DNA from: Balanoglossus misakiensis | Taxonomy: Eukaryota > Animalia > Hemichordata | Assembly: GCA_040954595.2 (NCBI GenBank) | Contig: CM082590.2 | Coordinates: 3,472,001 to 3,536,000 of the forward strand | Direction of reading: 5' to 3' | DNA length: 64,000 nucleotides | Shown here: in pieces, positions 4,992 to 48,113 of the stretch | Layout: each line of letters opens with the position of its first letter | Numbering within the stretch: the first letter of the stretch is position 1 | Notes under the pieces: generated by a model | Seen by the model: the letters and a program-made list of their open reading frames with translations, nothing else | Databases searched by the model: none | Told to the model about the DNA's origin: nothing | Position numbers and translations under genes: made by a program

Positions 4992-5043
4992 AAAATTCCA
5001 ACGAAACCAATACGGGCCCAAGCCTGGCTTGGCTTGGGCCCGT
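4992..5043. repeat. Single terminal hairpin module
   Basis: CGGGCCCAAGCCTGGCTTGGCTTGGGCCCG within a (GAAA)n tract. Confidence 0.95.
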
Positions 5044-7898: not shown

Positions 7899-7931
<33 letters not shown>

Positions 7932-10711
7932 TAAAGCTGCAAGCAGCATTGTCCGGGCCCAAGCTCTATTATCTGGTCTGATTATTAGAAATGCACATAA
8001 TTAATGAGTAGAAACATAATGCTGTGTTTTATCCCATGAAATATCAAGGTTATATCTATGTTTGGTGTTGATATAGTGTTAAGTAGGTCAAAGGTCACCC
8101 AGAGGTCACCCACAATTTGGGCAGAAAATTTTGACCCATAGTGGTCCATGTCCAACAAAAACCAGACCTCTAGCCCTTTTGGTTAGCCCGGAATTAGGTA
8201 TGCAGATAAATAATGCGTAAAGCAGGTGTCACAGATGACCCAAAACTTTGGCTTTTCATTATGGCCCCATACCTCCAAATGTCAAGGCTGTACCTGCTTT
8301 GGATGCCGAGATATGCAAAAGTAGGTCAAAGGTCATCTGAGGTCATCCAAAATTTGGGCAGAAAATTTTGACTCATAGTGGTCCATGTCCAACAAAAACC
8401 AGACCTCTAGCCCTTTTGGTTAGCCCGGAATTAGGTATGCACATAAATAGTGAGTAAAGCAGGCGTCACAGGTGACCCAAAACTTTGGCTTTTCATTATG
8501 GCCCCATACCTCCAAATGCCAAGGCTGTGCCTGCTTTGGATGCTGAGATATGCAAAAGTAGGTCAAAGGTCATCTGAGGTCATCCAAAATTTGGGCAAAA
8601 AATTTTGACCCCATACTGGTCCATGTCCAACAAAAACCAAACCTCTAGCTCAATTGGTTCGCCTGTAATTAGCTATGCACATAATTAATGAGGTCAGCAG
8701 AGGTCAAAGGGGTCATGAAAAGTAGCAAAATATTTTGATCACACACTAATCCACATTCATCAAAAACCAAACGTCTAGCCCTACAGGTTAGCCTGGAATT
8801 AGATATGCAGAAATAATAACGTGTGATAAGTAGGTCAAAGGTCATGTGAAAAATCGCCAAAAATTTGTAACATATTGTAGTCATATGACGATTGATATCC
8901 ATAAAAAGAATTTGTATGCTATTAATTTTTATACTAGAAAAAGGAATTTTAATTTTTCACTGCTTTTTACAAAATCCAATATGGCCGCCATAATCTTCGA
9001 CCAATCACATTCCTCTTCCCAAACTTGATAGACATCTGTTTAATGAACACACACACCAAATCTTGCGACTCGGTTATCGCCGGTTCTTGAGAAGAAGATT
9101 TTTGAAATTTTACTAGGGTTTTTCGAAAATCCAATATGGCCGCCATAATCTTCGACCAATCACAATGATCTTCGCAAACTTGATAGACATCAGTTAGGTG
9201 ACCACATACCCCAAACCCCGTGTCTCGGTTATCACCGGTTCTGGAGAAGAAGATTTTTGAAATTTAAGCCAGATTTCAGAAAAAAAAATTGTAGCAAAAA
9301 AACTGCAACTTTGTCAGCATAATTTCCAATTACAAAAATGATTGACAGAAGGTAGTCTACCTGCACGCCAAATTTGAAGTTGATCTGACTTGTAGTTTCT
9401 GAGATCTGAGATTTGCATTTTTTCAGAAAATCCAAGATGGCCGCCAGGTCATGTGACTAATTAAAAATTCATGGGTTCAATGCACGACTACTCATTGACC
9501 TTGACCACTGTAGCAAGTTTGAGAACTGTACCTGCAGTGGTGTCTGAGATCTAGAGCGACAAAGAATTGACAGAAGAATAAAGAAAGAAGAAGGAAAGAC
9601 AGATTAAAGCTGCAAGCAGCATTGTCCGGGCCCAAGCTCTATTATCTGATCTGATGCTGATATAGTGTTAAGTAGGTCAAAGGTCACCCGAGGTCACCAA
9701 ACATTTGGGCAAAATATTTTGACCCGATACTGGTCCATGTATAACAAAAACAAAACCTCTAGGTCTATTGGTTCATCTGTAATTAGGTATGTGCATATTT
9801 AATGAGGTCAGCAGAGGTCAAAGGGGTCATGAAAAGTAGCAAAAATTTTTGATCACATACAAATCCACATACATCAAAAACCAAAATGATAGCCTTAAAG
9901 GTTAGCCTGGAATTAGATATGCAGAAAAATGATGCATCAAAAGTAGGTCAAAGGTCATTGCCAAAATTACCAAAATATTTATAGCTTATTCTTGGCATAT
10001 GATGATTCATATCCATAAAAAGAATTTCTGTGCTATCAATTTTTAGGCTAGAAAGGGAATTTTTACTTTTTAATCGTTTTTCACAAAATCCAATATGGCC
10101 GCCATAATCTTCGACCAATCACATTCCCCTTCGCAAACTTGATAGACATCTGTTTAATGACCACACACACCAAATCTTGTGACTCAGTTATTGCCGGTTC
10201 TTGAGAAGAAGATTTTTGAAATTTTACTAGGGTTTTTCGAAAATCCAATATGGCCGCCATAATCTTCGACCAATCACAATGATCTTCGCAAACTTGATAG
10301 ACCTCAGTTTGGTGACCACATACCCCAAACCGCGTGACTCGGTTATCGCCGGTTCTGGAGAAGAAGATTTTTGAAATTTTGACCAGATTTCAGAAAAACA
10401 ACTGTAGCAAAAAAACTGCAACATTGACAGCATAATTTCCAATTACAAAAATGTTTGACAGAAGGTGGTCTACCTGCACGCCAAATTTGAAGTCAATCTG
10501 ACTTGTAGTTTCTGAGATCTGAGATTTGCATTTTTTCAGAAAATCCAAGATGGCCGCCAGGTCATGTGACTAATTAAAAATTCATGGGTTCAATGCACGA
10601 CTACTCATTGACCTTGACCACTGTAGCAAGTTTGAGAACTGTACCTGCAGTGGTGTCTGAGATCTAGAGCGACAAAGAAATGACACAAGAATAAAGAAAG
10701 AAAGAAGAAAG

Positions 10712-10949
10712 AAAAACCCCAACGAAACCAATAGGGCCCAAGCGCTGGTATGCGCTTGGGCCCTAAAAAACCCCAACGAAACCAATAGGGCCCAAGCGCT
10801 GGCTTGCGCTTGGGCCCTAAAAAACCCCAACGAAACCAATAGGGCCCAAGCGCTTGCTTGCGCTTGGGCCCTAAAGAAAGAAAGAAGGAAAGACAGAAAA
10901 ACCCCAACGAAACCAATAGGGCCCAAGCGCTGGCTTGCGCTTGGGCCCT
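10712..10949. repeat. Cluster of 4 terminal hairpin modules
   Basis: Hairpins at 10734, 10788, 10842 and 10919. Confidence 0.95.
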
Positions 10950-13900
10950 AATTAAAGCTGCAAGCAGCATTGTCCGGGCCCAAGCTGTATTATCTGATCA
11001 GATTATTAGATATGCACATAATTAATGAGTAGAAACATAATGCTGTGTTTTATCCCATGAAATATCAAGGTTATATCTATGTTTGGTGTTGATATAGTGT
11101 TAAGTAGGTCAAAGGTCACCCAGAGGTCACCCACAATTTGGGCAGAAAATTTTGACCCATAGTGGTCCATGTCCAACAAAAACCAGACCTCTATCCCTTT
11201 TGGTTAGCCCGGAATTAGGTATGCACATAAATAATGAGTTAAGCAGGTGTCACAGGTGACCCAAAACTTTGGCTTTTCATTATGGCCCCATACCTCCAAA
11301 CGCCAAGGCTGTATCTGCTGTGGATGTCGAGATATGCAAAAGTAGGTCAAAGGTCATCCGAGGTCACCCAACATTTGGGCAAAAAATTTGACCCAATACT
11401 GGTTCATGTCCAACAAAAACCAAACCTCTAGGTCTATTGGTTCATCTGTAATTAGGTATGCGCATATTTAATGAGGTCAGCAGAGGTCAAAGGGGTCATG
11501 AAAAGTAGCGAAATTTGTTGATCGCATACAAATCCACATACATCAAAAACCAAACTTATAGCCCTATTGGTTAGCCTGGAATTAGATATGCAGAAAAATG
11601 ATGCGTCAAAAAGTAGGTCAAAGGTCATTGCCAAAATTACCAAAATATTTATAGCTTATTCTTGGCATATGATGATTCATATCCATAAAAAGAATTTCTG
11701 TGCTATCAATTTTTAGGCTAGAAAGGGAATTTTTACTTTTTAATCGTTTTTCACAAAATCCAATATGGCCGCCATAATCTTCGACCAATCACATTCATCT
11801 TCGCAAACTTGATAGACATCTGTTTAATGACCACACACACCAAATCTTGTGACTCAGTTATCGCCGGTTCTTGAGAAGAAGATTTTTGAAATTTTACTAG
11901 GGTTTTTCGAAAATCCAATATGGCCGCCAAAATCTTCGACCAATCACAATGATCTTCGCAAACTTGATAGACCTCAGTTTGGTGACCACATACCCCAAAC
12001 CGCGTGACTCGGTTATCGCCGGTTCTGGAGAAGAAGATTTTTGAAATTTTGACCAGATTTCAGAAAAACAACTGTAGCAAAAAAACTGCAACATTGACAG
12101 CATAATTTCCAATTACAAAAATGTTTGCCAGAAGGTAGTCTACCTGCACGCCAAATTTGAAGTCGATCTGACTTGTAGTTTCTGAGATCTGAGATTTGCA
12201 TTTTTTCAGAAAATCCAAGATGGCCGCCAGGTCATGTGACTAATTAAAAATTCATGGGTTCAATGCACGACTACTCATTGACCTTGACCACTGTAGCAAG
12301 TTTGAGAACTGTACCTGCAGTGGTGTCTGAGATCTAGAGCGACAAAGAAATGACAGAAGAATAAAGAAAGAAGAAAGAAAGAAAGACAGAATTAAAGCTG
12401 CAAGCAGCATTGTCCGGGCCCAAGCTCTATTATCTGATCAGATTATTAGATATGCACATAATTAATGAGTAGAAACATAATGCTGTGTTTTATCCCATGA
12501 AATATCAAGGTTATATCTATGTTTGGTGTTGATATAGTGTTAAGTAGGTCAAAGGTCACCCAGAGGTCACCCACAATTTGGGCCGAAAATTTTGATCCAT
12601 AGTGGTCCATGTCCAACAAAAACCAGACCTGTAGCCCTTTTGGTTAGCCCGGAATTAGGTATGCACATAAATAATGAGTTAAGCAGGTGTCAAAGGTGAC
12701 CCAAAACTTTGGCTTTTCATTATGGCCCCATACCTCCAAACGCCAAGGTTGTATCTGCTGTGGATGTCGAGATATGCAAAAGTAGGTCAAAGGTCACCCG
12801 AGGTCACCCAACATTTGGGCAAAATATCTTGACCCCATACTGGTCCATGTATAACAAAAACAAAACCTCTAGGTCTATTGGTTCATCATTAATTAGGTAT
12901 GCGCATATTTAATGAGGTCACCAGAGGTCAAAGGGGTCATGAAAAGTAGCAACATTTTTTGATCACATACAAATCCACATACATCAAAAACCAAACTTAT
13001 AGCCCTATTGGTAAGCCTGGAATTAGATATGCAGAAAAATGATGCGTCAAAAGTAGGTCAAAGGTCATTGCCAAAATTACCAAAATATTTATAGCTTATT
13101 CTTGTCATATGATGATTCATATCCATAAAAAGAATTTCTGTGCTATCAATTTTTAGGCTAGAAAAGGAATTTTTACTTTTTAATCGTTTTTCACAAAATC
13201 CAATATGGCCGCCATAATCTTCAACCAATCACATTCCCCTTCGCAAACTTGATAGACACCTGTTTAATGACCACACACACCAAATCTTGTGACTCGGTTA
13301 TCGCCCGTTCTTGAGAAGAAGATTTTTGAAGTTTTACTATGGTTTTTCGAAAATCCAATATGGCCGCCATAATCTTCGACCAATCACAATGATCTTCGCA
13401 AACTTGATAGACATCAGTTAGGTGACCACATACCCCAAACCGCGTGACTCAGTTATCACCGGTTCTGGAGAAGAAGATTTTTGAAATTTAAGCCAAATTT
13501 CAGAAAAAAAATTGTAGCAAAAAAACTGCAACATTTACAGCAAAATATCCAATTACAAAAATGATGGGTAGAAGGTAGACTACCTGTACACCAAATTTGA
13601 AGTCGATCTGACTTGTAGTTTCTGAGATCTGAGATTTGCATTTTTTCAGAAAATCCAATATGGCCGCCAGGTCACGTGACTAATTAAAAATTCACAGGTT
13701 CAATGCACGACTACTCATTGACCTTGACCACTGTAGTAAGTTTCAGAAGTGTACCTGCTGCGGTGTCTGAGATCTAGAGCGACAAATAATTGACACAAGA
13801 ATAAAGAAAGAAAGAAAGAAAGATTAAAGCTGCAAGCAGCATTGTCCGGGCCCAAGCTCTATTATCTGATCTGATTATTAGATATGCACATAATTAATGA

Positions 13901-15254
13901 GTAGAAACATAATGCAGTGTTTTATCCCATGAAATATCAAGGTTATATCTATGTTTGGTGCTGATATAGTGGTAAGTAGGTCAAAGGTCACCCAGGGGTC
14001 ACCCACAATTTGGGCAGAATATTTTGACCCATAGTGGTCAATGTCCAACAAAAACCAGACCTCTAGCCCTTTTGGTTAACCCGGAATTAGGTATTCACAT
14101 AAATAATGCGTAAAGCAGGTGTCACAGGTGACCCCACAACTTTGGCTTTTCATTATGGCCCCATACCTCCAAACGCCAAGGTTGTACCTGCTTTGGATGC
14201 TGAGATATGCAAAAGTAGGTCAAAGGTCATCTGAGGTCACCCAAAATTTGGGTAGAAAATTTTGACCCATAGTGGTCCATGTATAACAAAAACAAAACCT
14301 CTAGGTCTATTGGTTCATCTGTAATTAGGTATGCGCATATTTAATGAGGTCAGCAGAGGTCAAAGGGGTCATGAAAAGTAGCAAAAATTTTTGATCACAT
14401 ACAAAACCAAATACATCAAAAACCAAACTTATAGCCCTATTGGTTAGCCTGGAATTAGATATGCAGAAAAATGATGCGTCAAAAGTAGGTCAAAGGTCAT
14501 TGCCAAAATTACCAAAATATTTATAGCTTATTCTTGTCATATGATGATTCATATCCATAAAAAGAATTTCTGTGCTATCAATTTTTAGGCTAGAAACGGA
14601 ATTTTTACTTTTTAATCGTTGTTCACAAAATCCAATATGGCCGCCAAAATCTTCGACCAATCACAATGATCTTCGCAAACTTGATAGACATCAGTGTAGT
14701 GACCATACTCCCCAAATCTTGTGACTCGGTTATCGCTGGTTCTTGAGAAGAAGATTTTTGAAACTTTACTAGGGTTTTTCGAAAATCCAATATGGCCGCC
14801 ATAATCTTCGACCAATCACAATGATCTTCGCAAACTTGATAGACCTCAGTTTGGTGACCACATACCCCAAACCCAGTGTCTCGGTTATCACCGGTTCTGG
14901 AGAAGAAGATTTTTGAAATTTAAGCCAGATTTCAGAAAAAAAATTGTAGCAAAAAAACTGCAACTTTTTCAGCATAATTTCCAATTACAAAAATTATAAG
15001 CAGAAGGTAGTCTACCTGCACGCCAAATTTGAAGTCGATCTGACTTGTAGTTTCTGAGATCTGAGATTTGCATATTTTCAGAAAATCCAAGATGGCTGCC
15101 AGGTCATGTGACTAATTAGAAATTCAAGGGTTCAATGCACGACTACTCATTGACCTTGACCACTGTAGCAAGTTTCAGAAGTGTACCTGCAGTGGTGTCT
15201 GAGATCTAGAGCGACAAAGAATTGACACAAGAATAAAGAAAGAAGAAAGAAAGA

Positions 15255-16420
15255 ATATAGCTGCAAGCAGCGATGACGGGCCCAAGCTTAAGCCGAAGGT
15301 CAAAGGTCATAAGTGGTCACCCAAAATTTGGGCAAGAAATTTTGACCCCATACTGGTCCGTGTCCCACAAGAACAAAATCTCTAGCCCTATTGGTTCGCC
15401 TACAATTAGGTATGTGCATAATTAATGAGGTAAAGTGTAAGGCTCCATCAGGAGTTCCATCCCTCCAAATGCCAAGGCTGTAGCTGCTGTGCATGCCGAG
15501 ATATGGTAAAGTAGGTCAAAGGTCACCTGAGGTCACCCAAAATTTGGGCAAGAAATTTTGACCCCATACTGGTTCATGTTCAGCAATAACCAAACCTCTA
15601 GTCCTATTGGTTGGCCTGGAATTAGGTATGCACATAATTAATGAGATAAGCAGGTGTCACAGGTGACCCTCAATTTTGGCTTTTAAATTTTAGTCCCAAC
15701 CCTCCAAACGCCAAGTCTGTACCTGCTCTGGATGCCGAGATATAGGAAAGTAGGTCAAAGGTCACCTGAGGTCACCCAAAATTTGGGCAATTTTTTTTTA
15801 CCCTTTACTGGTCCATGTCCCACAAGCACAAAACCTCTAGCCCTATTAGTTAGCCCAGAATTAGGTATGCACATAATTAATGAGTTAAGCAGGTGTTACA
15901 GGTGAGCCCAAAATTTTGCCTTTTATTTTGGTCCCATTCTGCTCACGGGGCAATAGAGAGTCACAGTACAGGACCATTGCACAGATGTGGACATAGCATC
16001 ATAGCTTAACTATAGAAAGTATAGGCCTATGGCTGGGTCCAAAAAATATGAAATATAATATTTAAAAATCTTCTTCTCAAAATTGACTTGGCCCAGAGCC
16101 TTGAAATTTAGCATGTAGGACACTGACCATATGGTCCGCAAAATGATTGCACAGAATTTTGATATCATCATTCATATGCAAATTAGGCCCATTTGAAAAC
16201 TTTGCCCATATATGGTCATCAGGTCATGTGACTAATTACACATTCACGAGGGTACTGCACGAGCTCTCATAGACCTGCACCATTGTGCCAAGTTTGAGAT
16301 TTGTAGGTTCAGCCGTTTTCAAGATCTACCTGAGCAAAAAAACTACACAAGAAAAAAAAAAAAAAGATGAAAAACCCCAGTAATACCAATAGGGCACAAG
16401 CCTGCTTGGCTTGTGCCCTA
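15255..16420 (-). mobile_element. Divergent subfamily copy of the HINE-like element with its own divergent end
   Basis: Starts ATATAGCTGCAAGCAGCGATGACGGGCCCAAGC, has a distinct second half, and is followed directly by the variant hairpin GGGCACAAGC...GCTTGTGCCC at 16392. Confidence 0.8.
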
Positions 16421-16698
16421 AAAAACCCCAACGAAACCAATAGGGCCCAAGCGCTGGCTTGCGCTTGGGCCCTAAAGAAAGAAAAACCCCAACGAAACCA
16501 ATAGGGCCCAAGCGCTGGTATGCGCTTGGGCCCTAAAAACCCCAACGAAACCAATAGGGCCCAAGCGCTGGTATGCGCTTGGGCCCTAAAGAAAAACCCC
16601 AACGAAACCAATAGGGCCCAAGCGCTGGTATGCGCTTGGGCCCTAAAAAACCCCAACGAAACCAATACGGGCCCAAGCCTGGCTTGGCTTGGGCCCGT
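16370..16698. repeat. Cluster of 6 terminal hairpin modules
   Basis: Hairpins at 16392, 16443, 16504, 16557, 16614 and 16669. Confidence 0.95.
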
Positions 16699-19600
16699 AA
16701 TTAAAGCTGCAAGCAGCATTGTCCGGGCCCAAGCTCTATTATCTGATCTGATGCTGATATAGTGTTAAGTAGGTCAAAGGTCACCTGAGGTCACCCAACA
16801 TTTGGGCAAAATATTTTGACCTCATACTGGTCCATGTATAACAAAAACAAAACCTCTAGGTCTATTGGTTCATCTGTAATTAGGTATGTGCATATTTAAT
16901 GAGGTCAGCAGAGGTCAAAGGGGTCATGAAAAGTAGCGAAATTTTTTGATCACATACAAATCCACATACATCAAAAACCAAAACGATAGCCTTAAAGGTT
17001 AGCCTGGAATTAGATATGCAGAAAAATGATGCGTCAAAAGTAGGTCAAAGGTCATTGCCAAAATTACCAAAATATTTATAGCTTATTCTTGGCATATGAT
17101 GATTCATATCCATAAAAAGAATTTCTGTGCTATCAATTTTTAGGCTAGAAAGGTAATTTTTACTTTTTAATCGTTTTTCACAAAATCCAATATAGCCGCC
17201 ATAATCTTTGACCAATCACATTCCCCTTCGCAAACTTGTTAGACATCTGTTTAATAACCACACACACCAAATCTTGTGACTCGGTTATCGCCGGTTCTTG
17301 AGAAGAAGATTTTTGATATTTTACTAGGGTTTTTCGAAAATCCAATATGGCCGCCGTAATCTTCGAACAATCACAATGATCTTCGCAAACTTGATAGACA
17401 TCAGTTAGGTGACCACATACCAAAAACCCCGTGTCTCGGTTATCACCGGTTCTGGAGAAGAAGATTTTTGAAATTTAAGCCAGATTTTAGGAAAAAAATT
17501 CTAGCAAAAAAACTGCAACATTGACAGCAAAATTTCCAATTACAAAAATGATGGGTAGTAGGTAGTCTACCTGCACGCCAAATTTGAAGTCGATCTGACT
17601 TGTAGTTTCTGAGATCTGAGATTTGCATTTTTTCAGAAAATCCAATATGGCCACCAGGTCACGTGACTAATTAAAAATTCATGGGTTCAATGCACGACTA
17701 CTCATTGACCTTGACCACTGTAGCAAGTTTGAAAACTGTACCTGCAGTGGTGTCTGAGATCTAGAGCGACAAAGAATTGACATAAGAATAAAGAAAGAAT
17801 TAAAGCTGCAAGCAGCATTGTCCGGGCCCAAGCTCTATTATCTGATCTGATGCTGATATAGTGTTAAGTAGATCAAAGGTCACCCGAGGTCACCCAACAT
17901 TTAGGCAAAATATTTTGACCCCATACTGGTCCATGTATAACAAAAACAAAACCTCTAGGTCTACTGGTTCATCATTAATTAGGTATGTGCATATTTAATG
18001 AGGTCAGCAGGGGTCAAAGGGGTCACAAAAAGTAGCAAAATATTTTGATCACACACTAATCCACATACATCAAAAACCAAACTTATAGCCCTATTGGTTA
18101 GCCTGGAATTAGATATGCAGAAAAATGATGTGTCAAAAGTAGGTCAAAGGTCATTGCCAAAATTACCAAAATATTTATAGCATATTCTTGTCATATGATG
18201 ATTCATATCCATAAAAAGAATTTCTGTGCTATCAATTTTTAGGCTAGAAAGGGAATTTTTACTTTTTAATCGTTTTTCACAAAATCCAATATGGCCGCCA
18301 TAATCTTCGACCAATCACATTCCTCTTCGCAAACTTGATAGATATCTGTTTAATGACCACACACACCAAATCTTGTGACTCGGTTATCGCCGGTTCTTGA
18401 GAAGAAGATTTTTGAAATTTTACTAAGGTTTTACGAAAATCCAATATGGCCGCCATAATCTTCGACCAATCACAAAGATCTTCGCAAACTTGATAGACAT
18501 CAGATAGGTGACTACATACCCCAAACCCCGTGTCTCGGTTATCACCAGTTCTAGAGAAGAAGATTTTTGAAATTTAAGCCGGATTTCAGAAAAAAAATTG
18601 TAGCAAAAAAACTGCAACATTGACAGCAAAATATCCAATTACAAAAATGATGGGTAGAAGGTAGACTACCTGCACACCAAATTTGAAGTCGATCTGACTT
18701 GTAGTTTCTGAGATCTAAGATTTGCATTTTTTCAGAAAATCCAATATGGCCGCCAGGTCACGTGACCAATTAAAAATTCAAGGGTTCAATGCACATCTAC
18801 TCATTGACCTTGACCACTGTAGCAAGTTTCAGAAGTGTACCTGCAGCGGTGTCTGAGATCTAGAGCGACAAAGAATTGACACAAGAAAAAAGAAAGAAAG
18901 AAAGAAAGAAAGACAGAATTAAAGCTGCAAGCAGCATTGTCCGGGCCCAAGCTCTATTATCTGATCTGATGCTGATATAGTGTTAAGTAGGTCAAAGGTC
19001 ACCCGAGGTCACCAAACATTTGGGCAAAATATTTTGACCCCATACTTGTCCATGTATAACAAAAACAAAACCTCTAGGTCTATTGGTTCATCTGTAATTA
19101 GGTATGTGCATATTTAATGAGGTCAGCAGAGGTCAAAGGGGTCATGAAAAGTAGCAAAATTTTTTGATCGCATACGAATCCACATACATCAAAAACCGAA
19201 ATGATAGCCTTAAAGGTTAGCCTGGAATTATATATGCAGAAAAATGATGCGTCAAAAGTAGGTCAAAGGTCATTGCCAAAATTACCAAAATATTTATAGC
19301 TTATTCTTGGCATATGATGATTCATATCCATAAAAAGAATTTCTGTGCTATCAATTTTTAGGCTAGAAAGGGAATTTTTACTTTTTAATCGTTTTTCACA
19401 AAATCCAATATGGCCGCCAAAATCTTCGACCAATCACAATGATCTTAGCAAACTTGATAGACATCAGTGTAGTGACCATACTCCCCAAATCTTGTGACTT
19501 GGTTATCGCTGGTTCTTGAGAAGAAGATTTTTGAAATTTTACTAGGGTTTTTCGAAAATCCAATATGGCCGCCATAATCTTCGACCAATCACAATGATCT

Positions 19601-20045
19601 TCGCAAACTTGATAGACATCTGTTAGGTGACCACATACCCCAAACGGCGTGACTCGGTTATCGCCGGTTCTGGAGAAGAAGATTTTTGAAATTTAAGCCA
19701 GATTTCAGAAAAAAAATTGTAGCAAAAAAACTGCAACATTGTCAGCATAATTTCCAATTACAAAAATGATAGGCTGAAGGTAGTCTACCAGCATGCCAAA
19801 TTTGAAGTTGATCTGACTTGTAGTTTCTGAGATCTGAGATTTGCTTTTTTTTAGAAAATCCAAGATGGCCGCCAGGTCACGTGACTAATTAAAAATTCAC
19901 AGGTTCAATGCACGACTACTCATTGACCTTGACCACTGTAGCAAGTTTCAGAAGTGTACCTGCAGCGGTGTCTGAGATCTAGAGCGACAAAGAATTGACA
20001 CAAGAATAAAGAAAGAAAGAAGAAAGAAGAAAGAAGGAAAGACAG

Positions 20046-20151
20046 AAAAACCCCAACGAAACCAATAGGGCCCAAGCGCTGGTATGCGCTTGGGCCCTAA
20101 AAACCCCAACGAAACCAATAGGGCCCAAGCGCTGGCTTGCGCTTGGGCCCT
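20046..20151. repeat. Cluster of 2 terminal hairpin modules
   Basis: Hairpins at 20068 and 20121. Confidence 0.95.
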
Positions 20152-23100
20152 AATTAAAGCTGCAAGCAGCATTGTCCGGGCCCAAGCTCTATTATCTGAT
20201 CTGATTATTAGATATGCACATAATTAATGAGTAGAAACATAATGCAGTGTTTTATCCCATGAAATATCAAGGTTATATCTATGTTTGGTGCTGATATAGT
20301 GTTAAGTAGGTCAAAGGTCACCCAGGGGTCACCCACAATTTGGGCAGAATATTTTGACCCATAGTGGTCAATGTCCAACAAAAACCAGACCTCTAGCCCT
20401 TTTGGTTAACCCGGAATTAGGTATGCACATAAATAATGCGTAAAGCAGGTGTCACAGGTGACCCCACAACTTTGGCTTTTCATTATGGCCCAATACCTCC
20501 AAACGCCAAGGTTGTACCTGCTTTGGATGCTGAGATATGCAAAAGTAGGTCAAAGGTCACCTGAGGTCACCCAACATTTGGGCAAAATATTTTGACCCCA
20601 TACTGGTCCATGTATAACAAAAACAAAACCTCTAGGTCTATTGGTTCATCTGTAATTAGGTATGTACATATTTAATGAGGTCAGCAGAGGTCAAAGGGGT
20701 CATGAAAAGTAGCAAAATTTTTGGATCACATACAAATCGACATACATCAAAAACCAAACTTATAGCCCTATTGGTTAGCCTGGAATTAGATATGCAGAAA
20801 AATCATGCATCAAAAGTAGGTCAAAGGTCATTGCCAAAATTACCAAAATATTTATAGCTTATTCTTGTCATATGATGATTCATATCCATAAAAAGAATTT
20901 CTGTGCTATCAATTTTTAGGCTAGAAAGGGAATTTTTACTTTTTAATCGTTTTTCACAAAATCCAATATGGCCGCCATAATCTTCGACCAATCACATTCC
21001 TCTTCGCAAACTTGATAGACATCTGTTTAGTGACCACACACACCAAATCTTGTGACTCGGTTATCGCCGGTTCTTGAGAAGAAGATTTTTGAAATTTTAC
21101 TAGGGTTTTTCGAAAATCCAATATTGCCGCCATAATCTTCAACCAATCACAATGATCTTCGCAAACTTGATAGACATCAGTTAGGTGACCACATACCCCA
21201 AACCGCGTGACTCGGTTATCACCGGTTCTGGAGAAGAAGATTTTTGAAATTTAAGCCAGATTTCAGAAAAAAAATTGTAGCAAAAAAACTGCAACATTGA
21301 CAGCATAATTTCCAATTACAAAAATGATGGGTAGAAGGTAAACTACCTGCACACCAAATTTGAAGTCGATCTGACTTGTAGTTTCTGAGATCTGAGATTT
21401 GCATTTTTTCAGAATATCCAATATGGCCGCCAGGTCACGTGACTAATTAAAAATTCAAGGGTTCAATGCACGACTACTCATTGACCTTGACCACTGTAGC
21501 AAGTTTCAGAAGTGTACCTGCAGCGGTGTCTGAGATCTAGAGCGACAAAGAATTGACACAAGAATAAAGAAAGATTAAAGCTGCGAGCAGCATTGTCGGG
21601 CCCAAGCGCTGATCTTGAATTATATATGCACAGTATGAATGAGAAGAAACAGAATTGTTTATCGTATGTATTATCTCATGACATAATAAGGATGTGTGTG
21701 TTTTTGCTGCTGAAATAGGGTGAAGTAGGTCAAAGGTCACCTGAGGTCACCCAACATTTGGGCAATTTTTTTTTAACCCATACTGGTCCATGTCCAACAA
21801 AAAACAAAACTCTAGCTCTATTGGTTCGCCTGTAATTAGGTATGTGCATATTTAATGAGGTCAGCAGGTGTCACAGGTGACTCAAAAATGTGGCTTTACA
21901 TTTTGGTCCCATCCTACCAAATGCCATGGCTGTATCTGCTCTGGATGCTGAGATATGCGAAAGTAGGTCAAAGGTCACCAGAGGTCACGCAACATTTGGG
22001 CAAAAAATTCTGATCCCATACTGGTCTGTGTCCAACAAAAACCAAACCTCTAGCTCTATTGGTTCGCCTGTAATTAGATATGCACATAATTAATGAGGTC
22101 AGCAGAGGTCAAAGGGGTCATGAAAAGTAGCAAAATATTTTGATCACACACTAATCCACATTCATCAAAAACCAAACGTCTAGCCCTATAGGTTAGCCTG
22201 GAATTAGATATGCAGAAATAATAACGCGTGATAAGTAGGTCAAAGGTCATGTGAAAAATCGCCAAAAAATTGTAACATAGTTTAGTCACATGACGATTGA
22301 TATCCATCAAAAGAATTTGTATGCTATCAATTTTTAGACTAGAAAAAGGAATTTCAATTTTTCACTGCTTTTTACAAAATCCAATATGGCCGCCATAATC
22401 TTCGACCAATCACAATGTTCTTTGCAAACTTGATAGACATCAGTGTAGTGACCATACTCCCCGAATCTTGTGACTCAGTTATCGCCTGTTCTGGAGAAGA
22501 AGATTTTGGGAGTTTTACTATGGTTTTTCGGAAATCCAATATGGCCGCCATAATCTTCGACCAATCACAATGATCTTCGCAAACTTGATAGACCTCAGTT
22601 AGGTGACCCCATACCCCAAACCGCGTGACTCCGTTATCGCCGGTTCTGGAGAAGAAGATTTTTGAAATTTTGACCAGATTTCAGAAAAACAACTGTAGCA
22701 AAAAAACTGCAACATTGACAGCAAAATATCCAATTACAAAAATGATGGGCAGAAGGTACACTACCAGCACGCCAAATCTGAAGTAAATCTGACTTGTAGT
22801 TTCTGAGATCTGAGATTTGCATTTTTTCAGAAAATCCAATATGGCCGCCATGTCACGTGACTAATTAAAAATTCATGGGTTCAATGCACGACTACTCATT
22901 GACCTTGACCACTGTAGCAAGTTTGAGAACTGTACCTGCAGCGGTGTCTGAGATCTAGAGCGATAAAAAATGGACAGGAGAATAAAGAAAGAAAGAAAGA
23001 ATTAAAGCTGCAAGCAGCATTGTCCGGGCCCAAGCTCTATTATCTGATCTGATTATTAGATATGCACATAATTAATGAGTAGAAACATAATGCTGTGTTT

Positions 23101-24446
23101 TATCCCATGAAATATCAAGGTTATATCTATGTTTGGTGTTGATATAGTGTTAAGCAGGTCAAAGGTCACCCAGAGGTCACCCACAATTTGGGCAGAAAAT
23201 TTTGACCCATAGTGGTCCATGTCCAACAAAAACCAAAACTCTAGCTTTATTGGTTTGCGTGTAATTAGGTATGTGCATATTTAATGAGGTCAGCAGGTGT
23301 CACTGGTGTCCCAAAAATTTGGCTTTTCATTATGGCCCCATACCTCAAAACGCCAAGGCTGTATCTGCTTTGGATACCGAGAAATGCGAAAGTAGGTCAA
23401 AGGTCACCTGAGGTCACCCAAAATTTTGGGCAAATTATTTTGACCCAATACTGATCAATGTCCAAAAAAAGACCAAAACTCTAGGTCTATTGGTTCATCT
23501 GTAATTAGGTATGCGCATATTTAATGAGGTCAGCAGAGGTCAAAGGGGTCATGAAAAGTAGCAATATTTTTTGATCACATACAAATCCACATACAACAAA
23601 AACCAAACTTATAGCCCTATTGGTTAGCCTGGAATTAGATATGCAGAAAATTGATGCGTCAAAAGTAGGTCAAAGGTCATTGCCAAAATTACCAAAATAT
23701 TTATAGCTTATTCTTGTTATATGATGATTCATATCCATAAAAAGAATTTCTGTGCTATCAATTTTTAGGCTAGAAAGGGAATTTTTACTTTTTAATCGTT
23801 TTTCACAAAATCCAATATGGCCGCCATAATCTTCGACCAATCACATTCCTCTTCGCAAACTTGATAGACATCTGTTGAATGACCACACACACAAAATCTT
23901 GTGATTCGGTTAGCGCCGGTTCTCGAGAAGAAGATTTTTGAAATTTTACTAGGGTTTTTCGAAAATCCAATATGGCCGCCATAATCTTCGACCAATCACA
24001 ATGATCTTCGCAAACTTGATAGACATCAGTTAGGTGACCACATACCCCAAACCCCGTGTCTCGGTTATCACCGGTTCTGGAGAAGAAGATTTTTGAAATT
24101 TAAGCCAGATTTCAGAAAAAAAATTGTAGCAAAAAAACTGCAACTTTGTCAGCATAATTTCCAATTACAAAAATGATTGACAGAAGGTAGTCTACCTGCA
24201 CGCCAAATTTGAAGTCGATCTGACTTGTAGTTTCTGAGATCTGAGATTTGCATTTTTTCAGAAAATCCAATATGGCCGCCAGGTCACGTGACTAATTAAA
24301 AATTCATGGGTTCAATGCACGACTACTCATTGACCTTGACCACTGTAGCAAGTTTGAAAACTGTACCTGCAGTGGTGTCTGAGATCTAGAGCGACAAAGA
24401 ATTGACATAAGAATAAAGAAAGAAAGAAAGAAAGAAAGAAAGACTG

Positions 24447-25324
24447 AAAAATACCAACGAAACCAATAGGGCCCAAGCCTGGCTTGGCTTGGGCCCTAAA
24501 AAACCCCAACGAAACCAATAGGGCCCAAGCGCTTGCTTGCGCTTGGGCCCTAAAGAAAGAAAAACCCCAACGAAACCAATAGGGCCCAAGCGCTGGTATG
24601 CGCTTGGGCCCTAAAGAAAGAAAGACTGAAAAATACCAACGAAACCAATAGGGCCCAAGCCAAGCCAGGCTTGGGCCCTATTGGTTTCGTTGGTATTTTT
24701 CAGTCAAACCAGGCTTGGGCCCTAAAGAAGAAAGAAAAACCCAACGAAACCAATAGGGCCCAAGCGCTGGCTTGCGCTTGGGCCCTAAAGAAAAACCCCA
24801 ACGAAACCAATAGGGCCCAAGCGCTGGTATGCGCTTGGGCCCTAAAAAATTCCAACGAAACCAATACGGGCCCAAGCCTGGCTTGGCTTGGGCCCGTAAA
24901 AACCCCAACGAAACCAATAGGGCCCAAGCGCTGGCTTGCGCTTGGGCCCTAAGAAGGAAAGAAAGAAAGACTGAAAAACCCCAACGAAACCAATACGGGC
25001 CCAAGCCTGGCTTGGCCCAAGCGCTTGTTTGCGCTTGGGCCCTAAAAATTCCAATGAAACCAATAGGGCCCAAGCGCTTGCTTGCGCTTGGGCCCTAAAA
25101 AAACCCAACGAAACCAATAGGGCCCAAGCGCTTGCTTGCGCTTGGGCCCTAAAAAACCCCCAACGAAACCAATAGGGCCCAAGCGCTGGTATGCGCTTGG
25201 GCCCTAAAAAAACCCAACGAAACCAATACGGGCCCAAGCCTGGCTTGGCTTGGGCCCGTAATAATAATAAAGAAAAATTCCAACAATACCAATAGGGGCA
25301 CAAGCCCGATAGGCTTGTGCCCCT
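24447..25324. repeat. Terminal stack of ~14 hairpin modules closing the array
   Basis: Hairpins at 24469, 24521, 24582, 24651 (rearranged), 24756, 24813, 24868, 24920, 24997 (fused double), 25066, 25120, 25175, 25230 and 25295 (divergent, preceded by (AAT)n). Confidence 0.95.
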
Positions 25325-25547
25325 AGATACACACCACTTCGCAAAGCAATCTGACCAGTAGTTCTTGAGTTACTGAGTTTTGACCAAATTCACATTTTTC
25401 CAGCTAATTTGCATATTTTTTGCAATGACAACTTCGTTTGAACAAACTCCCATCTACAGCCCAGCCTGCATCTGCACACCAAATATTGAGGTGATACGCG
25501 CAGCGGTTTTCAAGTGTTTGATGTGGACATACATACACACACACACA

Positions 25548-25615
<68 letters not shown>

Positions 25616-25722
25616 TACATACATACATACATACATACATACATACATACATACATACATACATACATACATACGCAACCGATCCCATAAGGTCCCCTGG
25701 TACATACCAATGGGACCTAATA
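25325..25722. mobile_element. End of a second, older HINE/pearl-like family, with (CA)n(TACA)n microsatellite and terminal hairpin
   Basis: Microsatellite ~25528-25673, hairpin AGGTCCC...GGGACCT ~25690-25718; 25365-25530 is homologous to 63410-63550. Confidence 0.7.
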
Positions 25723-25784: not shown

Positions 25785-25883
25785 CCTATCCTTAGCATTG
25801 ACGTCAGCTCCATGGTCAATCAACACTTGTGCCGCTTCCAGTTTATTTTCGTCGGCCAATGCATGCAATGCTGTGGATTCAGA
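25785..25883 (-). CDS. Ankyrin-repeat gene, coding exon 3 (SESTALHALADENKLEAAQVLIDHGADVNAKDR)
   Basis: 99 bp, phase 0-0, cag acceptor and gtaagt donor; ankyrin consensus TALH...LI.HGADVNAKD. Confidence 0.9.
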
Positions 25884-27753: not shown

Positions 27754-27852
27754 CCAGCCACGGTATACACCCTTTGCATTGACATCGTAGCCATCAGCTA
27801 TCAACGATTGAATCCTTGCAACATCACCATCCTTAGCGGCATTAATGAGATC
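27754..27852 (-). CDS. Ankyrin-repeat gene, coding exon 2 (DLINAAKDGDVARIQSLIADGYDVNAKGVYRGW)
   Basis: 99 bp, phase 0-0, tag acceptor and gtaagt donor; N-cap ankyrin pattern L..AA..GD...I..LI..G.DVNA. Confidence 0.9.
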
Positions 27853-28167: not shown

Positions 28168-29449
28168 CCCGGAAAAGTACAAACACTACGGCATATTACC
28201 ACATAATTCTTTTTTACTAGCAACAAATGCCAAACTAGCAACACCGGCTTTCTTTGAGGGGGCCGACACGTTATCTCTAAAATTGTAACAACGTCACAAT
28301 TTAGTAGACAAAGAGGCGCCCCCTATTGCGCAGTTGAAGTACGTGCGTGTTGAGAGAGAAGTGTCGACTCGAACGCTGCTCTACGAAGCTCGTAGTTACC
28401 TTCTTACCGGGACATTTGTACTTGAACGGACTGGGTTCCTCCCACTTCAGGTCGGTAGATTCCTGTGAAGCAGAGACGTGAATTTTGCCGTTCCTAGTGC
28501 CGCGGGTTGCAGTGTATCCCGTCTGTTGAACTTTTTTTAGAGACTGAGATGAGAATTAGCAGTGTAGGATAGAGACGACGTACCAAACTGCCGTGTTGTA
28601 TTCTGAATTTGTGTTAATACGACGTGATAAATACGACGGAAGAGTTTGAACGGCATTGCTGTGTGGACTGATAGTTTTGTGGCAAATTCGGGCGTGCGAG
28701 GCCGCCGCTAACCTTGCCGCGATCACCTGGCCACTTGAGAACTTTCTCGACCTACACATAAACTTGTTGTTTGTGGCAGCAATCGTGATAGGTTACGTTG
28801 TTTGAAAAAGAAAACGTTGACGCGGCAATGCGCCCAGCGGCGGACACCACATGAATTTTTTTCAGATCTGGCTTTTTCAACGTGTTTGTTTGGCGTTCAT
28901 TATTTAGTATATATCCATGTTCTTGTTCCGCTATTTCCCATTCCGAAAACCCCAAAGTTTTAAACGTGTACACTTTGACTAGAAAAGGCCTCAGACACCT
29001 TCATATGCTGTCCGGCAGCCGGGGTGGGATATCCGACTGCGGTGCAGCTCAAAGTGGCATGGAGCTGGTCATGTTGGGAGCGGTGCAGCACTTTCATACC
29101 CGCCGGCGTGCGGCAATCAGCAAGAACCCATCGGGAGGAACCCAGTCCGTTCAAGCGCAAATGTCCCGGTCAGAAGGTAACTACGAGCTTCGTAGAGCAG
29201 CGTTCGACACGCTAAACAACTCTCGTCATCCGTGTTCAAGTCAGTCTCCTACCCCTTTCTGTTCACGTCTCTCTCTCAACACGCACGTACTTCAACTGTG
29301 CAATTGGGATGGGGGGACGCCTCTTTGTCTAGTACATTATGACGTTGTTACAATTTTAGAGATAACGCGTTGCTGGCATGAAATAAATACGATGTTGCCA
29401 GTTTGCCGTTTGTTGCTGGTAAAAAGAATTCCGTAGTATTTTTCCAGGG
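28168..29449. mobile_element. Non-autonomous foldback DNA element with ~270-320 bp imperfect TIRs, in intron 1 of the ankyrin gene
   Basis: 28168-28443 is the reverse complement of 29133-29449 (e.g. CGAACGCTGCTCTACGAAGCTCGTAGTTACCTTCT / AGAAGGTAACTACGAGCTTCGTAGAGCAGCGTTCG); no transposase ORF. Confidence 0.8.
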
Positions 29450-31000: not shown

Positions 31001-33100
31001 CAGCAGAATTCCTAGATTTCTGTTTAAATCACTAAACTAGTTGGCACCAACAATTTGAATATTTATGTTTAGGGGAGAACACAGTCGCATGAGGGTTGTG
31101 TTGTGTTTACACAACGATCGCCTATGGCACTTTTCTGTGTCATAGGTGATCGACATGTTATACAATTCAACCCCCACGCGACTGTGGGGGAGAATCACTG
31201 CATTCCATTGTGATGACGTACACACAAGACAGGCAATGAATTCAACTATTACAAAGGACCCTTGACCTAGTTGGCTTTCAGTCAATGCATGTCGTGCCAG
31301 ACAGATCGTGACAGGCCCCGTCGAAGTTAACAGCCCAGTGCAGAATAAGATATTGTATACATGTACTGTGCTGTCAACTACAGCAGTGTCTGTAATCATG
31401 TGATTGTGAGTGAATATCATTGCACGTCTACGACTATATTGACTATCGAGGATTTTGTTTCGTTTGTCAGTTGTGATTTCCTGTTAGTGTTGAGAAATTT
31501 CGTATTTCCCGACTTTGCAAATTGCCATTTTTTTCCAATATGTAGCATTATTGCCAAATACTACATTCTTGCCAACTGCGTCTTTAGATTTTGAGTTGTT
31601 GCATGAGAGATTGAAAATCAGAGATGTCATATAAAAATGAACCCACTCTCATACAATCAATTTTAAGTGGTCAATGACCTTTAATGTACTGTACATTAAA
31701 ATAAAAGATAGAATTCATAAGATATACAATTAGTAAAACTTTTCTAAAATATGATTCAAGTGACCATCCAAAATAATCTATAAACTCAAAAATGTTTTGT
31801 AGAATGAAGCTGAAGCAAGTGCTGGCAATTAATGATTTATCTCAAACTTATATTTTTAATCATTTCATCACCATGGTTTAGCTTAAATTCATTATCTTCT
31901 ACAGTAAAATTGGACCTCTATAGAAGGAAATGGGGTTGAAGGTTTAAGGTAGTCTTGTACCTTGAAAAATAAGTCTTAAATTTAGACCAAAAAATTGTGT
32001 CATGGTGCAAATTTTAAATGAGAGAACAAGACTAAGTCACATTTGAAATTCATAGTGGCCACCAATGTCAGTGTAAGCTCAATAGAGAATAGCTGAAGAA
32101 GTGATTTTTATGAAAACATGCCTGTTTTTTATAGAGCTGTTTAGAGAATTACTGCTCTAACAATTTTTAATTTGAGACAATTTTATCATGCAACTTTTAT
32201 GGTGGATAATTAACTTTTTTTTAAAAATTGAGTATTCAGGTAAATTTCAAGCTCAATTTTCAGACTGATTTTGAAGGTGCATGTTAAAACCAAACATGAG
32301 AAGCAAGTGGGAATAGTTCATGTCTTGTATTGCAATAATTTGGCGGCCCATGTTCCACTCGGGGGAAAAAATGCCAACAAAGGAGACACACATATACACA
32401 AAAAATTGCAAAAGTAAACAATTTATTTTAAAAACATCATGGATTAAAATACACATACAAATCCTTCTGGCAGTGAAAAAGCAGTAAAAGATTCAATTCT
32501 CAAGTCTTCATTAAAAGATATCTAAAATCTGCAGTTGCTGAAACTGCATTGCAAAGGATTGGTAAAATGTGTAATATTTATATCCAAGATGAGGTCATAC
32601 ATCGAAAAAACAGTTGAACCCTTCACCCCCTTTTCCTCTTCAGAGGTTCAACCCCACATAGAAAACAACAGGTTTGGACTGAACCATTGTGGTGAAAGGG
32701 TACAAAGCACCCCAGTTTCCACAAAACATAAGTTGTGATCTGTGAAAATCAACAAGATTTCATTGGCAGGCTCCTGTAAGCTTCGCAGAATGTTACTTTA
32801 AAATTCTCATTTATAAAAATGGACTTGCAGGGCAATCACACGCTGACCATCAAATTCAGTGTAACTTTTATTAAGGATGTACAACTGATAAAAGTGAAAG
32901 TTATTGTCATTTGTATGGAAGATTTTAAGTTGCCCAGGCTTTTCTAAGTGTACCAACAATCTGTAACAAAATATAGGGGTCACTGTGCTTGTTTTTGAAA
33001 TGCAAAGCTGTGAATTTAGTCAAACTTAAAAACAGCTGAGTATTTTTTTTACCAATGGGTGTCTATGGGCCGAAAAAAGTTATTTCAAAATTGAGTGTGT

Positions 33101-33612
33101 GCATGGTGACCACAATATTTTGTTTGAGTTCTGATTTTAATTTCCATGAAGTGACGATAGTAAAAGCGCGTTATCTTGTAATTCTCAATGTAATCCTCTG
33201 GGAGAGACAAATTCCATGTGCTCCAAGTTTGCATGGTGACCATGAGTTTGAGTTCTGATTTTAATTTCCATGAAATGACGATACTAGAAGCGCGTTTTCC
33301 GGGAATTCTCAATGTAATCCTCTGGGAGAGACAAATTCCTTGTGCTCCAAGTTTGCATGGTGACCACAATATTTTGTTTGAGTTCTGATTTTAATTTCCA
33401 TGAAATGACGATACTAGAAGCGCGTTTTCTGGGAATTCTCAATGTAATCCTCTGGGAGAGACAAATTCCTTGTGCTCCAAGTTTGCATGGTGACCACAAT
33501 ATTTTGTTTGAGTTCTGATTTTAATTTCAGTGAAATGACGATACTAGAAGCGCGTTTTCCGGGAATTCTCAATGAAATCCTCTGGGAGAGACATATTCCT
33601 TGTGCTCCAAGT
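33101..33612. repeat. Minisatellite, 4 copies of a ~130 bp unit
   Basis: GCATGGTGACCA unit starts at 33101, 33231, 33355 and 33485. Confidence 0.95.
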
Positions 33613-33914
33613 GTGCGAACGTCCTTAACTGACCATCAGCACCAATGCTGCAATAGAACAGAAATTTATGGTTAGAAATTGAAGCATTTCAGACCCTAAT
33701 TGCTCTAGCCCTGGACTGGTCATTAATTCAACAGGTATTGAAAACTATAAGTATATTGTCTATAAACACCGAGAAATTGACAACTACCAATGTTCTAGAG
33801 ACCAAAAATAGATTTAAGGGGACCACTTGCTTGCCAGGCTGGTTCATTTAAAGTCCCAAATTGCTGCTATTTCTTGCAATATTTTCGATTTACTTCAAAC
33901 TGTTAACATGCCAT

Positions 33915-37997: not shown

Positions 37998-38878
37998 AGA
38001 ACAGGCGACATTGGAGTGACAGAAACACGTGCCATTAAAACAAATTGGCAGATTCGAGTTTCTAGCCTGCATGCCATGTTAACATCGAAGACGTTGTACG
38101 GGTCAAAGGCAAAGGGTCGAAGGTCAGCAACAGCGCCCCCTTGGGGTATATTCTGTGGAACTTTTGAAAGTTCCTGATCTCGTATACTAAGGACGCCAGC
38201 AGAATTTCCCGCGGCATTTTAATTCACATTCAAATATGAAAGAAATAAAACTAACCAGCTCTGAATTGGTTTGTTTAAAGGGGAGTTAGGATAGGGTCTT
38301 CCTTCGGTAGCTTTGACCCGCAATTCGGCCTAAATCTACGAAACAAAGGCTTTAGAGAAGATATCTTATTTTTCCAATTTTCTAACGGAAGGCGTGTTTA
38401 TGGCTAAATCATGTATATCCTTTCCTAAACATAGACCTAAAGAAAATAAACCCGGTGAAGACTGGTTGGTTTAAAGTGAGTTTGACTATGAATATGACTC
38501 GATCATTTGAAACTTCATATGACAGGTGAATTAAGTAACGCACTATATAGCGCGAATCAACTTTCAAAGGCCATCTCCGAAAATGATCATTGGAATTTCA
38601 CAAAAATTTCAGAACTAATTCCCAGAATTGCACTCAGTGGGCATAGCTGGCAAACATACTTATATCAATAATAATGTTTCAAGGACAATTTTGATTAGGC
38701 CTATATAAGAAATCGTTTTGTAGATTCGGCGGTCAAAACTATAAAACGAAGACTAAGTTTAAAGGTAGAGGTCTACTCAAATTCGAAAATACAATCTAAT
38801 AGAGAGAAAACTACACGCCACTGATAAGTTAAACTGTTATTTTTCTAGAAGCGTCCGGAAGCTTTAATGCTGTCAATT

Positions 38879-39197
38879 ATATTATACCAGTATATTGATG
38901 GTGTAAATCACGCTATTTTATTGGTCGAGACACGACACGTGACTATGATATATTAGTCATATACCACAGTCATATCATATATCATAGTCAAAGAAAATGC
39001 GTTTTTAAATGTTTTATGCAAAGTTTCAATATACTGGCATAATATAATAGCAATAAAACACCCCCAGCCATGGTATACCACTCGATTTTGATCAGTTCAA
39101 CTCCATATACACACTCGCTATCGCTCGTGCGTATATGTCGTGAACTGGTCAAAATCTCGTGGTATACCATGGTTTGGGGTGTTTTATTGCTTAAATA
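38879..39197 (+). mobile_element. ~320 bp non-autonomous element ending in a ~140 bp hairpin (copy 1)
   Basis: Palindrome AGCAATAAAACACCCCCAGCCATGGTATACCAC...GTGGTATACCATGG..GGGGTGTTTTATTGCT at 39049-39191; inverted copy at 48114-48429. Confidence 0.8.
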
Positions 39198-39361
39198 TAC
39201 AACATCGCGCAATATGATGAAATCGCGCGCATCATGCAAGAACTATGACGTCATTCCACACTACGGCAGCCAGAGAAACAAAAAAATTACAATATTAATA
39301 AAATTGCCTACCTACCTACCCTGTTTTGAAAACCATGTAATCGGAACACATATATTATTTT

Positions 39362-39560
39362 ACTGTTGCCTAAGAGTGGAAGAGTGATGTTCAAACTTCT
39401 TCGACACGGTGATGATTCTTGCTGCTGTGTTTTGTGAGTGCTGAAGTAGATGTATTGCAGATTGAGGAAGACCAAAAAGTAACGAATTGCAGTAATCAAG
39501 TTTGGTTGAAAGAACTGCGTGAATAAAAGTACAACAATCATTAGAAGACAGGTACTGGCA
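39362..39560 (-). mobile_element. L2/CR1-clade LINE ORF2 C-terminal fragment
   Basis: FIHAVLSTKLDYCNSLLFGLPQSAIHLLQHSQNTAARII matches the post-RT SRLDYCNSLL.GLP...LQ..QN.AAR motif. Confidence 0.8.
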
Positions 39561-39630
39561 TATTGATCCGGTGCGTCGAAGACGAAAAACACACAAGTTG
39601 TCAGGCCTACTCTCTTGGAGTGAGGAAGAA

Positions 39631-39691
39631 CCCAAACCCTAACCCTAGCCCTAACCCTAACCCTAGGAGTGAGGAGAAACCCTAACCCTAA
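39631..39691. repeat. Short interstitial telomere-type (CCCTAA)n repeats
   Basis: About 7 CCCTAA-like hexamers in two blocks, each preceded by GGAGTGAGGA. Confidence 0.8.
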
Positions 39692-39874
39692 TTAGGGTCC
39701 AATTGGTCCCCCATGTAACCCGAATTCAAAGGTCTACCAAAAAAAAACATTATGTTTTTTAAAGGTTATAAACACTGTAAATGATAGATTTCAATGAAAA
39801 TTATTTATTTTAAGTTATTGAAGCTCTAACCCTTGTATATTTCAGGGAGATTAAATCGGTTAAGTTTATCGGTT

Positions 39875-43368: not shown

Positions 43369-43548
43369 TTATTGTGCATGTTACAACAGATTGACTTCAA
43401 AAGTACTGCATTTTAAAGTCGGCAGTACTTAGGAAGTACACATATTGGGCAGCACTTTAAACCACTGCATCTTCTTCAAAACATGTATGTATTTATTGAG
43501 TGCATGTAAGTGTGTGTCAGTGTTATGATAATATTAATAATAATTATA

Positions 43549-47987: not shown

Positions 47988-48113
47988 CCGCAGGGAGGGC
48001 GGGAATCGTTGTACGACCGATGGCCGCAAAACCCGTATCAGGGCCGTAAAGGTTTTATCATATGCCTTATTGAACGATAATCTACAAGAAACTAATAAAA
48101 TACACATTGTGTA

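Follow-up and report, generated by a model that had tools for sequence, protein, structure and literature searches.

Stacked 5' hairpins in Balanoglossus misakiensis as the probable record of nested HINE/HLE2 insertions

How does a single place in a genome come to carry a row of hairpins that share a stem but differ in their loops, and can the order of such a row be read? The 64,000-nucleotide stretch of Balanoglossus misakiensis DNA analysed here (the window) raises this question at positions 24447-25326, where 14 hairpin modules stand one behind the other. An earlier note, made from the letters alone, took the row for an ordered record of insertions. We propose, with considerable if not complete confidence, that the 14 hairpins mark 5' ends belonging to nested copies of HINE/HLE2 elements, each likely pasted in trans by RepHel into the T-rich linker of the previous copy.

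Anatomy of the stacked hairpins

The modules at 24447-25326 are numbers 17-30 of 30 in the window. All 30, together with 17 element 3' ends, lie within positions 1-25326, and the hairpins, which we call heads, span 641-25326 as six stacks of 3, 1, 4, 6, 2 and 14, the focal stack being the last. Each module is built of a short A-rich spacer, a conserved 6-nt lead, and a stem with its loop. As the earlier note had described, the focal stack combines 14 modules with a constant stem (GGGCCCAAGC and its complement) and a small set of loops, of which five types are the main ones, and its last module belongs to a different subfamily: head 30 (25262-25324, minus strand; hairpin z -8.4), the outermost, consists of an (AAT)n linker remnant and, at 25289-25324, a module with a stem of its own, GGGGCACAAGC.

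At the other end of the stack, head 17 (24447-24499, minus strand), the 5' subTIR and inverted repeat of the element E17, is innermost and runs on into its body at 23002-24446. The next three heads, also on the minus strand, are assigned to bodies by the bracket matching described below: head 18 (24500-24553; hairpin z -5.5), with a rare GCTTGCTT loop, to the B-type body E16 (21575-23001); head 19 and its linker remnant (24554-24614) to E15 (20154-21574); and head 20 and its linker remnant (24615-24725) to E12 (16701-17799), which has rare body-end and head variants in common with E17. Heads 21-29 (24726-25261, minus strand) are nine main-family heads whose bodies are not in the window. Head 20 contains a 39-bp perfect fold-back duplication with an inverted loop, which suggests a template switch at the hairpin. 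Module 25 (24990-25045) is probably two heads fused through a small deletion in the palindromic core of the subTIR, so the focal stack may hold 15 ends.

Read on the minus strand, an intact copy consists of a T run, a subTIR with an inverted repeat, a T5 and (CTTT)n linker of about 35 nt, a body, a second subTIR, a short palindrome and a T run. The 5' inverted repeat overlaps the subTIR and forms 14-bp stems from the second base; the three heads that were folded gave z values of -5.5, -5.9 and -8.4, and for the two single focal heads among them (-5.5 and -8.4) none of 200 shuffles did equally well. The 17 3' ends, which lie at 786-23036 in a single orientation, carry a 5-bp palindrome and, after it, a repeat of the stem's left arm; the example at 23002-23036 (minus strand) comprises the subTIR, the palindrome GCTGC-TT-GCAGC (element strand) and the terminal T run. 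This palindrome is present in 17 of 17 ends and is, taken alone, a weak fold that is not significant (z +1.4). Between each 3' end and its paired head, the subterminal inverted repeats match at 10-13 of 13 positions in all 17 elements. The bodies, 1.1-1.7 kb long and non-coding, end in (AAAG)n and contain internal repeats of 155 nt and 238 nt. They hold no open frame of 150 amino acids, the sole two in the array crossing head stacks, and the window holds no RepHel-sized frame that would mark an autonomous partner, the only frame that large being a Roc-COR frame. The latter, at 55721-58966 on the minus strand, is an unbroken frame of 1081 aa that matches LRR, Roc and COR-A, a single-exon Roco-type gene.

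This anatomy resembles that of HINE/DINE-1 elements (Thomas, Vadnagara and Pritham 2014, PMC4067079), for which the sections of that paper used here give subTIRs at both ends, a 5' inverted repeat, a 3' stem-loop, a microsatellite, central tandem repeats, a T-rich target, no target duplication and a variable number of terminal Ts. In the array, the microsatellite beside the 5' module is the (AAAG)n linker, central tandem repeats are also present, the insertion step is T^T or T^C at 15 of 15 sites, and target duplication never exceeds one T (10 of 12 hosts are restored exactly, 2 of 12 with one extra T). The 3' subTIR lies about 24-35 nt from the end, as against 38-60 nt in the mite families treated in those sections. 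Since both the HINE/DINE-1 anatomy and the T^T insertion of HLE2 match published descriptions, we conclude that the stacked hairpins are the 5' ends of minus-strand elements, and that these elements are non-autonomous, non-coding Helentron-type (HINE/HLE2) copies.

Contigs with loose ends at window position 20187 (16, 21 and 1 contigs) keep the 3' end and continue into another body, so this terminus is common to several families. The contigs come from three runs (X1-X3) of one sample in one study and are too short to span the array; those over the head-to-tail junction have fewer than 31 letters on one side of it and were not counted as bridging it, and because all runs derive from one sample they give no independent check of the DNA. 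Metagenome matches to a 17-letter pattern, found at 119 loci, were set aside as chance matches, none of them having a hairpin or a 3' end.

Bracket pairing, insertion order and relative age

We treated each 3' end as an opening bracket and each head as a closing one, and paired them last in, first out. All 17 visible 3' ends are placed in this way, and the array resolves into two balanced nests on the minus strand. The first (E1-E11; 786-16700) has 11 3' ends and 11 heads on six levels, with stacks at 5007, 10728-10951 and 16386-16700; the second (E12-E17; 16701-24725) has 6 3' ends and 6 heads on four levels, with stacks at 20062-20153 and 24447-24725. On the deepest level lies E11 (15256-16421, minus strand), a copy of a divergent subfamily with a GGGCACAAGC head and only about 77% identity to E17, which agrees with the earlier suggestion that several families share this landing site; distant subfamilies are indeed seen to share it. 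Positions 1-785 (minus strand) hold a partial body, X0, with three heads, and the array passes the left edge of the window. In the focal stack, E17, E16, E15 and E12 take 4 of the 14 heads, exactly the number that had been thought assignable to bodies in the window; the remaining 10 are unpaired within it and, with two further unpaired heads at 694 and 747, make 12 heads without bodies in the window.

Twelve of the 17 units are split from their heads. When the split copies are rejoined according to this pairing, 10 of 12 linkers are well formed and the other 2 have one extra A, a test that is weak by itself (equalled in 850 of 20000 shuffles and in 896 of 4320 within-stack arrangements). Concordance between the last 55 nt of a body and the type of its head, scored without the too divergent E11, was equalled by 16 of 20000 shuffles, and the two measures jointly by 0 of 20000 global shuffles and 14 of 4320 within-stack arrangements. 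Last-in-first-out pairing scored 3.22, compared with 1.40 for first-in-first-out. Rare types follow the same pairing. Of the heads that find a partner only two have the GCTTGCTT loop, and these go to the two B-type bodies, E5 and E16, whose last 330 nt are identical; E12 is given an E17-type rare head across 6.8 kb and five nested copies with no offset. Chance would give these pairings of E5, E16 and E12 once in 660, for types that were chosen after inspection of the data.

In the visible layers, the claim that the stack runs from innermost and youngest at the left to outermost and oldest at the right is thus borne out, last-in-first-out pairing performing better than both shuffled and first-in-first-out pairing. 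Because each copy likely lands in the T-rich stretch behind the previous head, the pile probably records the order of insertion, with the youngest copies of the whole focal stack likely at its left and the oldest at its right. Ten of its 14 heads have no visible body, so the depth of the outer layers is extrapolated: if those ten have bodies to the left of the window, the depth would be 14 at E17 and 16 at E7 and E11, and about 14-20 kb more array would be expected there.

The further expectation that divergence grows outward held weakly for heads (p about 0.015) and not significantly for bodies. Unique heads are more frequent in the outer layers (7 of 10 versus 4 of 20, p 0.015; rho -0.43, p 0.017), where several differences are C-run lengths that are possibly read errors; in bodies, private substitutions follow depth with the expected sign and without significance (rho -0.30, p 0.26). 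Loop types are mixed at every depth, and E11, divergent as it is, ranks among the deepest copies, so the subfamilies were likely active together.

Sixteen bodies could be compared, E11 (too divergent) and X0 (partial) being left out here and in mosaic painting. The closest of their 120 pairs is 2.1% apart, and local duplication was rejected on this ground; adjacent heads seldom share a loop (3 of 24, with 4.4 expected; 1 of 13 in the focal stack). Near-identical local tandem duplicates, the reading that the earlier note had set against its own, are not supported. Self-copying of elements into their own linkers fares no better, the distance between guest and host (7.2%, 14 pairs) being no smaller than that within other pairs (7.1%, 106 pairs; p 0.66). 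A tandem satellite or rolling-circle concatemer of complete, near-identical units was likewise rejected, given the 12 split units and the 2.1% that separates even the closest pair. The share of four-gamete conflicts between body sites grows with distance, from 12% for sites 1-10 nt apart to 56% for those separated by more than 300 nt: the bodies are recombinant mosaics. As the brackets still balance, mosaic donors or gene conversion are the more likely source of this mosaicism, rather than unequal crossing-over. Since the bodies are mosaic, recombination may also have edited the insertion record.

Founder insertion, target choice and growth of the nest

To the right, head 30 abuts an older HINE-like element cut at 25325 (25325-25722, minus strand), of which a body, an (AC)n/(ACAT)n tract and its own 5' hairpin at about 25690-25720 (z -2.2) are present. 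The DNA right of head 30 matches 63367-63554 at 70.5%. From 25327 onward the sequence is matched by two listed contigs, of depth 611 and 260, which have 48 and 67 unmatched letters at the left, and among the 18 loose-end rows listed of 638 a loose end from at least 3 contigs continues with sequence resembling 63356-63380. Because other copies of this family extend further left, the last module interrupts a HINE body. The earlier note had placed the last module against the end of another HINE-like family; the family is indeed directly adjacent, but it is an interrupted body that is met there and not an end. Its companion claim, that the founder landed in an older element, agrees with this boundary, at which the older HINE is cut in its body and contigs of its family continue left.

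Beyond the older element, an exon of 99 nt at 25785-25883 (minus strand) encodes exactly one ankyrin repeat (PF00023, E 2e-7) and has an AG acceptor and a GTAAGT donor. The array lies 3' of this donor, and because the donor faces it, an intron of an ankyrin-repeat gene is the likely location of the nest. A second ankyrin-like exon, a weak match (E 0.07) at about 27754-27852 on the minus strand, likewise has an AG acceptor and a GTAAGT donor.

Other repeats are found in the window. An AT-rich block of 9.5 kb at 38875-48433 is bordered by inverted arms 101 nt (96%) and 197 nt (97%) long, contains a direct duplication of 4.6 kb as well as nested inverted repeats, and is possibly a large foldback-type element; a telomere-like interstitial tract, (AACCCT)6, stands at 39629-39665. 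Inverted arms of 113 nt (82%) at 28211-28323 and 29313-29425, about 1 kb apart, may represent a MITE, and tandem arrays occupy 33100-33616 (130 nt, 4 copies) and 43549-43894 (126 nt, 2.8 copies).

Every insertion that can be placed in a visible host (15 of 15, at 13 distinct sites) lies in a linker; linkers hold 284 of 5209 AA/TT steps. Seven of the 15 fall in the T5 run next to a head, 53-54 nt from its tip. No insertion was found in 22.5 kb of bodies despite 372 TTTT^Y runs (linkers have 18), and no main-family copy in the approximately 38.3 kb right of the array; measured against the 22.5 kb of bodies and the 38.3 kb of flank, linkers are enriched by about 500-fold as a crude lower bound. 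The Helitron2 target is given as TTTT^T/C in the sections used of PMC5148889, and target choice of HLE2/Helentron elements is described in those of PMC4067079 and PMC11417382 just as T^T in T-rich DNA.

We propose that nests of this kind would grow as follows. A rolling-circle copy from a donor elsewhere, mobilised in trans by RepHel, would join at T^T or T^C, with the (CTTT)n and T5 linker as its preferred target; since this target is strand-specific, orientation would be fixed. Insertion would sever the host's head from its body and supply a fresh linker, and because every insertion brings a new linker, the site would feed itself. In a last step, a linker piece still attached to a head would be favoured over headless leftovers. 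As the cause of that bias within the model, we lean slightly toward binding or opening of the resident subTIR hairpin by RepHel; a preference for long pyrimidine tracts is a distinctly less probable cause, and accessibility of the newest copy an unlikely one. The founder would have landed in the body of the older HINE, likely within the ankyrin-gene intron.

It is only with the last step that the most serious alternative competes. A transposase that prefers long (CTTT)n tracts, one of which each copy carries, could build a nest without any guidance by heads, and we regard this as possible but rather unlikely. Windows with at least 17 purines in 20 are almost restricted to linkers (203 of 205), so sequence alone could explain the positional bias, and MINE-1 helitrons have been reported at GAAA microsatellites (PMC3812793) and HINEs as favouring T-rich targets (PMC4067079), in the sections of these papers used here. 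Listed contigs also place the 3' end beside varied A-rich unique DNA (at least 19, 14 and 3 contigs, with agreement of about 0.5 in the larger two); the family thus inserts singly as well, and a resident head is not required. In at least 6 listed contigs the 3' end stands beside an (AAT)n tract. Yet long headless (AAAG)n remnants persist after most splits while the tree remains chain-like: 5 leaves among 17 copies has a P of 0.002 in a toy model in which all linker steps are equal targets, and of 0.11 if only head-attached pieces are. In toy uniform-attachment trees, a depth of 16 was reached in 0 of 5000 at 30, 60 and 100 copies and in 28 of 5000 at 200. Against unguided nesting also stand the seven insertions in T5 beside a head, the sibling junctions that directly abut a head (4 of 5), and the use of an (AAT)n linker at head 30. 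As far as these models go, plain sequence preference would lead one to expect a less chain-like tree than the one observed, and this hints that a resident head guides targeting.

The abutting sibling junctions invite a reading of their own. Four of the five (at 785, 10951, 16700 and 20153) join a head straight to the next 3' end with no linker between, like a circle junction, and could stem from recombination of a circle into a resident copy or from rolling-circle concatemers. One of three tandem pairs is suggestive in this respect, E9 resembling the left part of E8 combined with the right part of E4. We nevertheless consider such an origin unlikely: joined partners are 3.9-7.6% apart in the three measurable pairs, which excludes fresh concatemers, the reciprocal pattern is absent for E13/E15 and E1/E12, and head stacks cannot be produced this way.

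For the outer layers the chief alternative is that many of the heads there are bodiless, having come on multi-headed composites (mobilised from an outer 5' end as far as the first 3' end) or lost their bodies by recombination between copies. The stack would then suggest more depth than now exists and would in part reflect what happened at a different locus. Such a composite route has been proposed for Fusarium (PMC5148889, Fig. 7 legend) and double heads are known in Xenopus (PMC11417382), as far as the sections used of these papers go; in the array itself the bodies are mosaic, head 25 shows a between-head deletion, and a one-head shift is possible at the end of the 16386 stack. Two observations make us judge it improbable: E12 finds its match without offset across five nested copies, as do E5 and E16 theirs, so that a spare head is unnecessary in the visible layers (17 elements), though not necessarily among the 12 heads without bodies in the window, and a duplicated composite is absent among the 16 bodies. 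Finally, a local minisatellite grown from a 53-nt unit through slippage or unequal crossing-over, or else an artefact of assembly, can point to the 53-61-nt periods that Tandem Repeats Finder gives in the stack and to the single sample behind the supporting runs, but deserves hardly any credence next to the rarity of shared loops among neighbouring focal heads, the spacers that vary and complement distant linker halves, and a long-range matching of body and head types that is impossible by local copying.

Relation to known Helentron-type elements

Nesting and multiple heads are already known from Helitrons of Fusarium, maize and Xenopus; the comparisons that follow rest on the sections of each source used here. 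In the Helitron2-type FoHeli elements (Chellapan et al. 2016, PMC5148889), repeated short 5' ends are explained by one copy inserting close to where another copy begins, as in our array, and one such insertion lies 2 bp from the other copy's 5' end; they are described with one repeat or few 5' ends per 3' end and as mobile composites, whereas here 14 heads are stacked and visible heads and 3' ends balance. HelenXT233 of Xenopus (Li et al. 2024, HELIANO, PMC11417382) shares HLE2 type, T^T insertion and stacked non-identical left ends that mark subfamilies, but is described as an autonomous element with two ends, with no nest order rebuilt. Maize Helitrons (Dong et al. 2011, PMC3288121) also insert near or inside other Helitrons and so gain multiple termini; they have canonical TC/CTAG ends, and a fixed internal landing site does not figure in the sections used. 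Cg_HINE of the Pacific oyster (PMC7492417) has a similar left module of subTIR, inverted repeat and microsatellite, central tandem repeats and T-rich insertion, but is described as dispersed single elements. MINE-1 helitrons (Coates et al. 2010, as cited in PMC3812793) have the same (GAAA)n target motif, which in our array is carried by the element itself. For HINE/DINE-1, clusters and tandem arrays are described in the sections used of PMC4067079, and not deep single-site nests. Our literature search, which covered sources other than subscription journals, Repbase and supplements, returned no description of a deep, ordered HINE nest. What is new here is the depth of the nest, the tested insertion order and the chain bias.

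From a nest with a legible and testable order, subfamilies can be timed relative to one another without recourse to a clock, and the question whether targeting requires an end already in place can be addressed directly. Such a nest also illustrates how a single intron might grow by tens of kilobases, and carries a warning for repeat annotation, in which such loci will be mislabelled as satellites or truncated copies. Beyond this, we put forward as a tentative idea, in which our confidence is limited, that the HLE2 transposase is guided to a resident 5' hairpin and inserts in the adjacent T run, giving rise to self-extending chains at least 16 deep and at least 40 kb long in a single intron. 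If this is true, local insertion rates would be hundreds of times background, and a stack of heads would be a natural tape recorder of subfamily activity.
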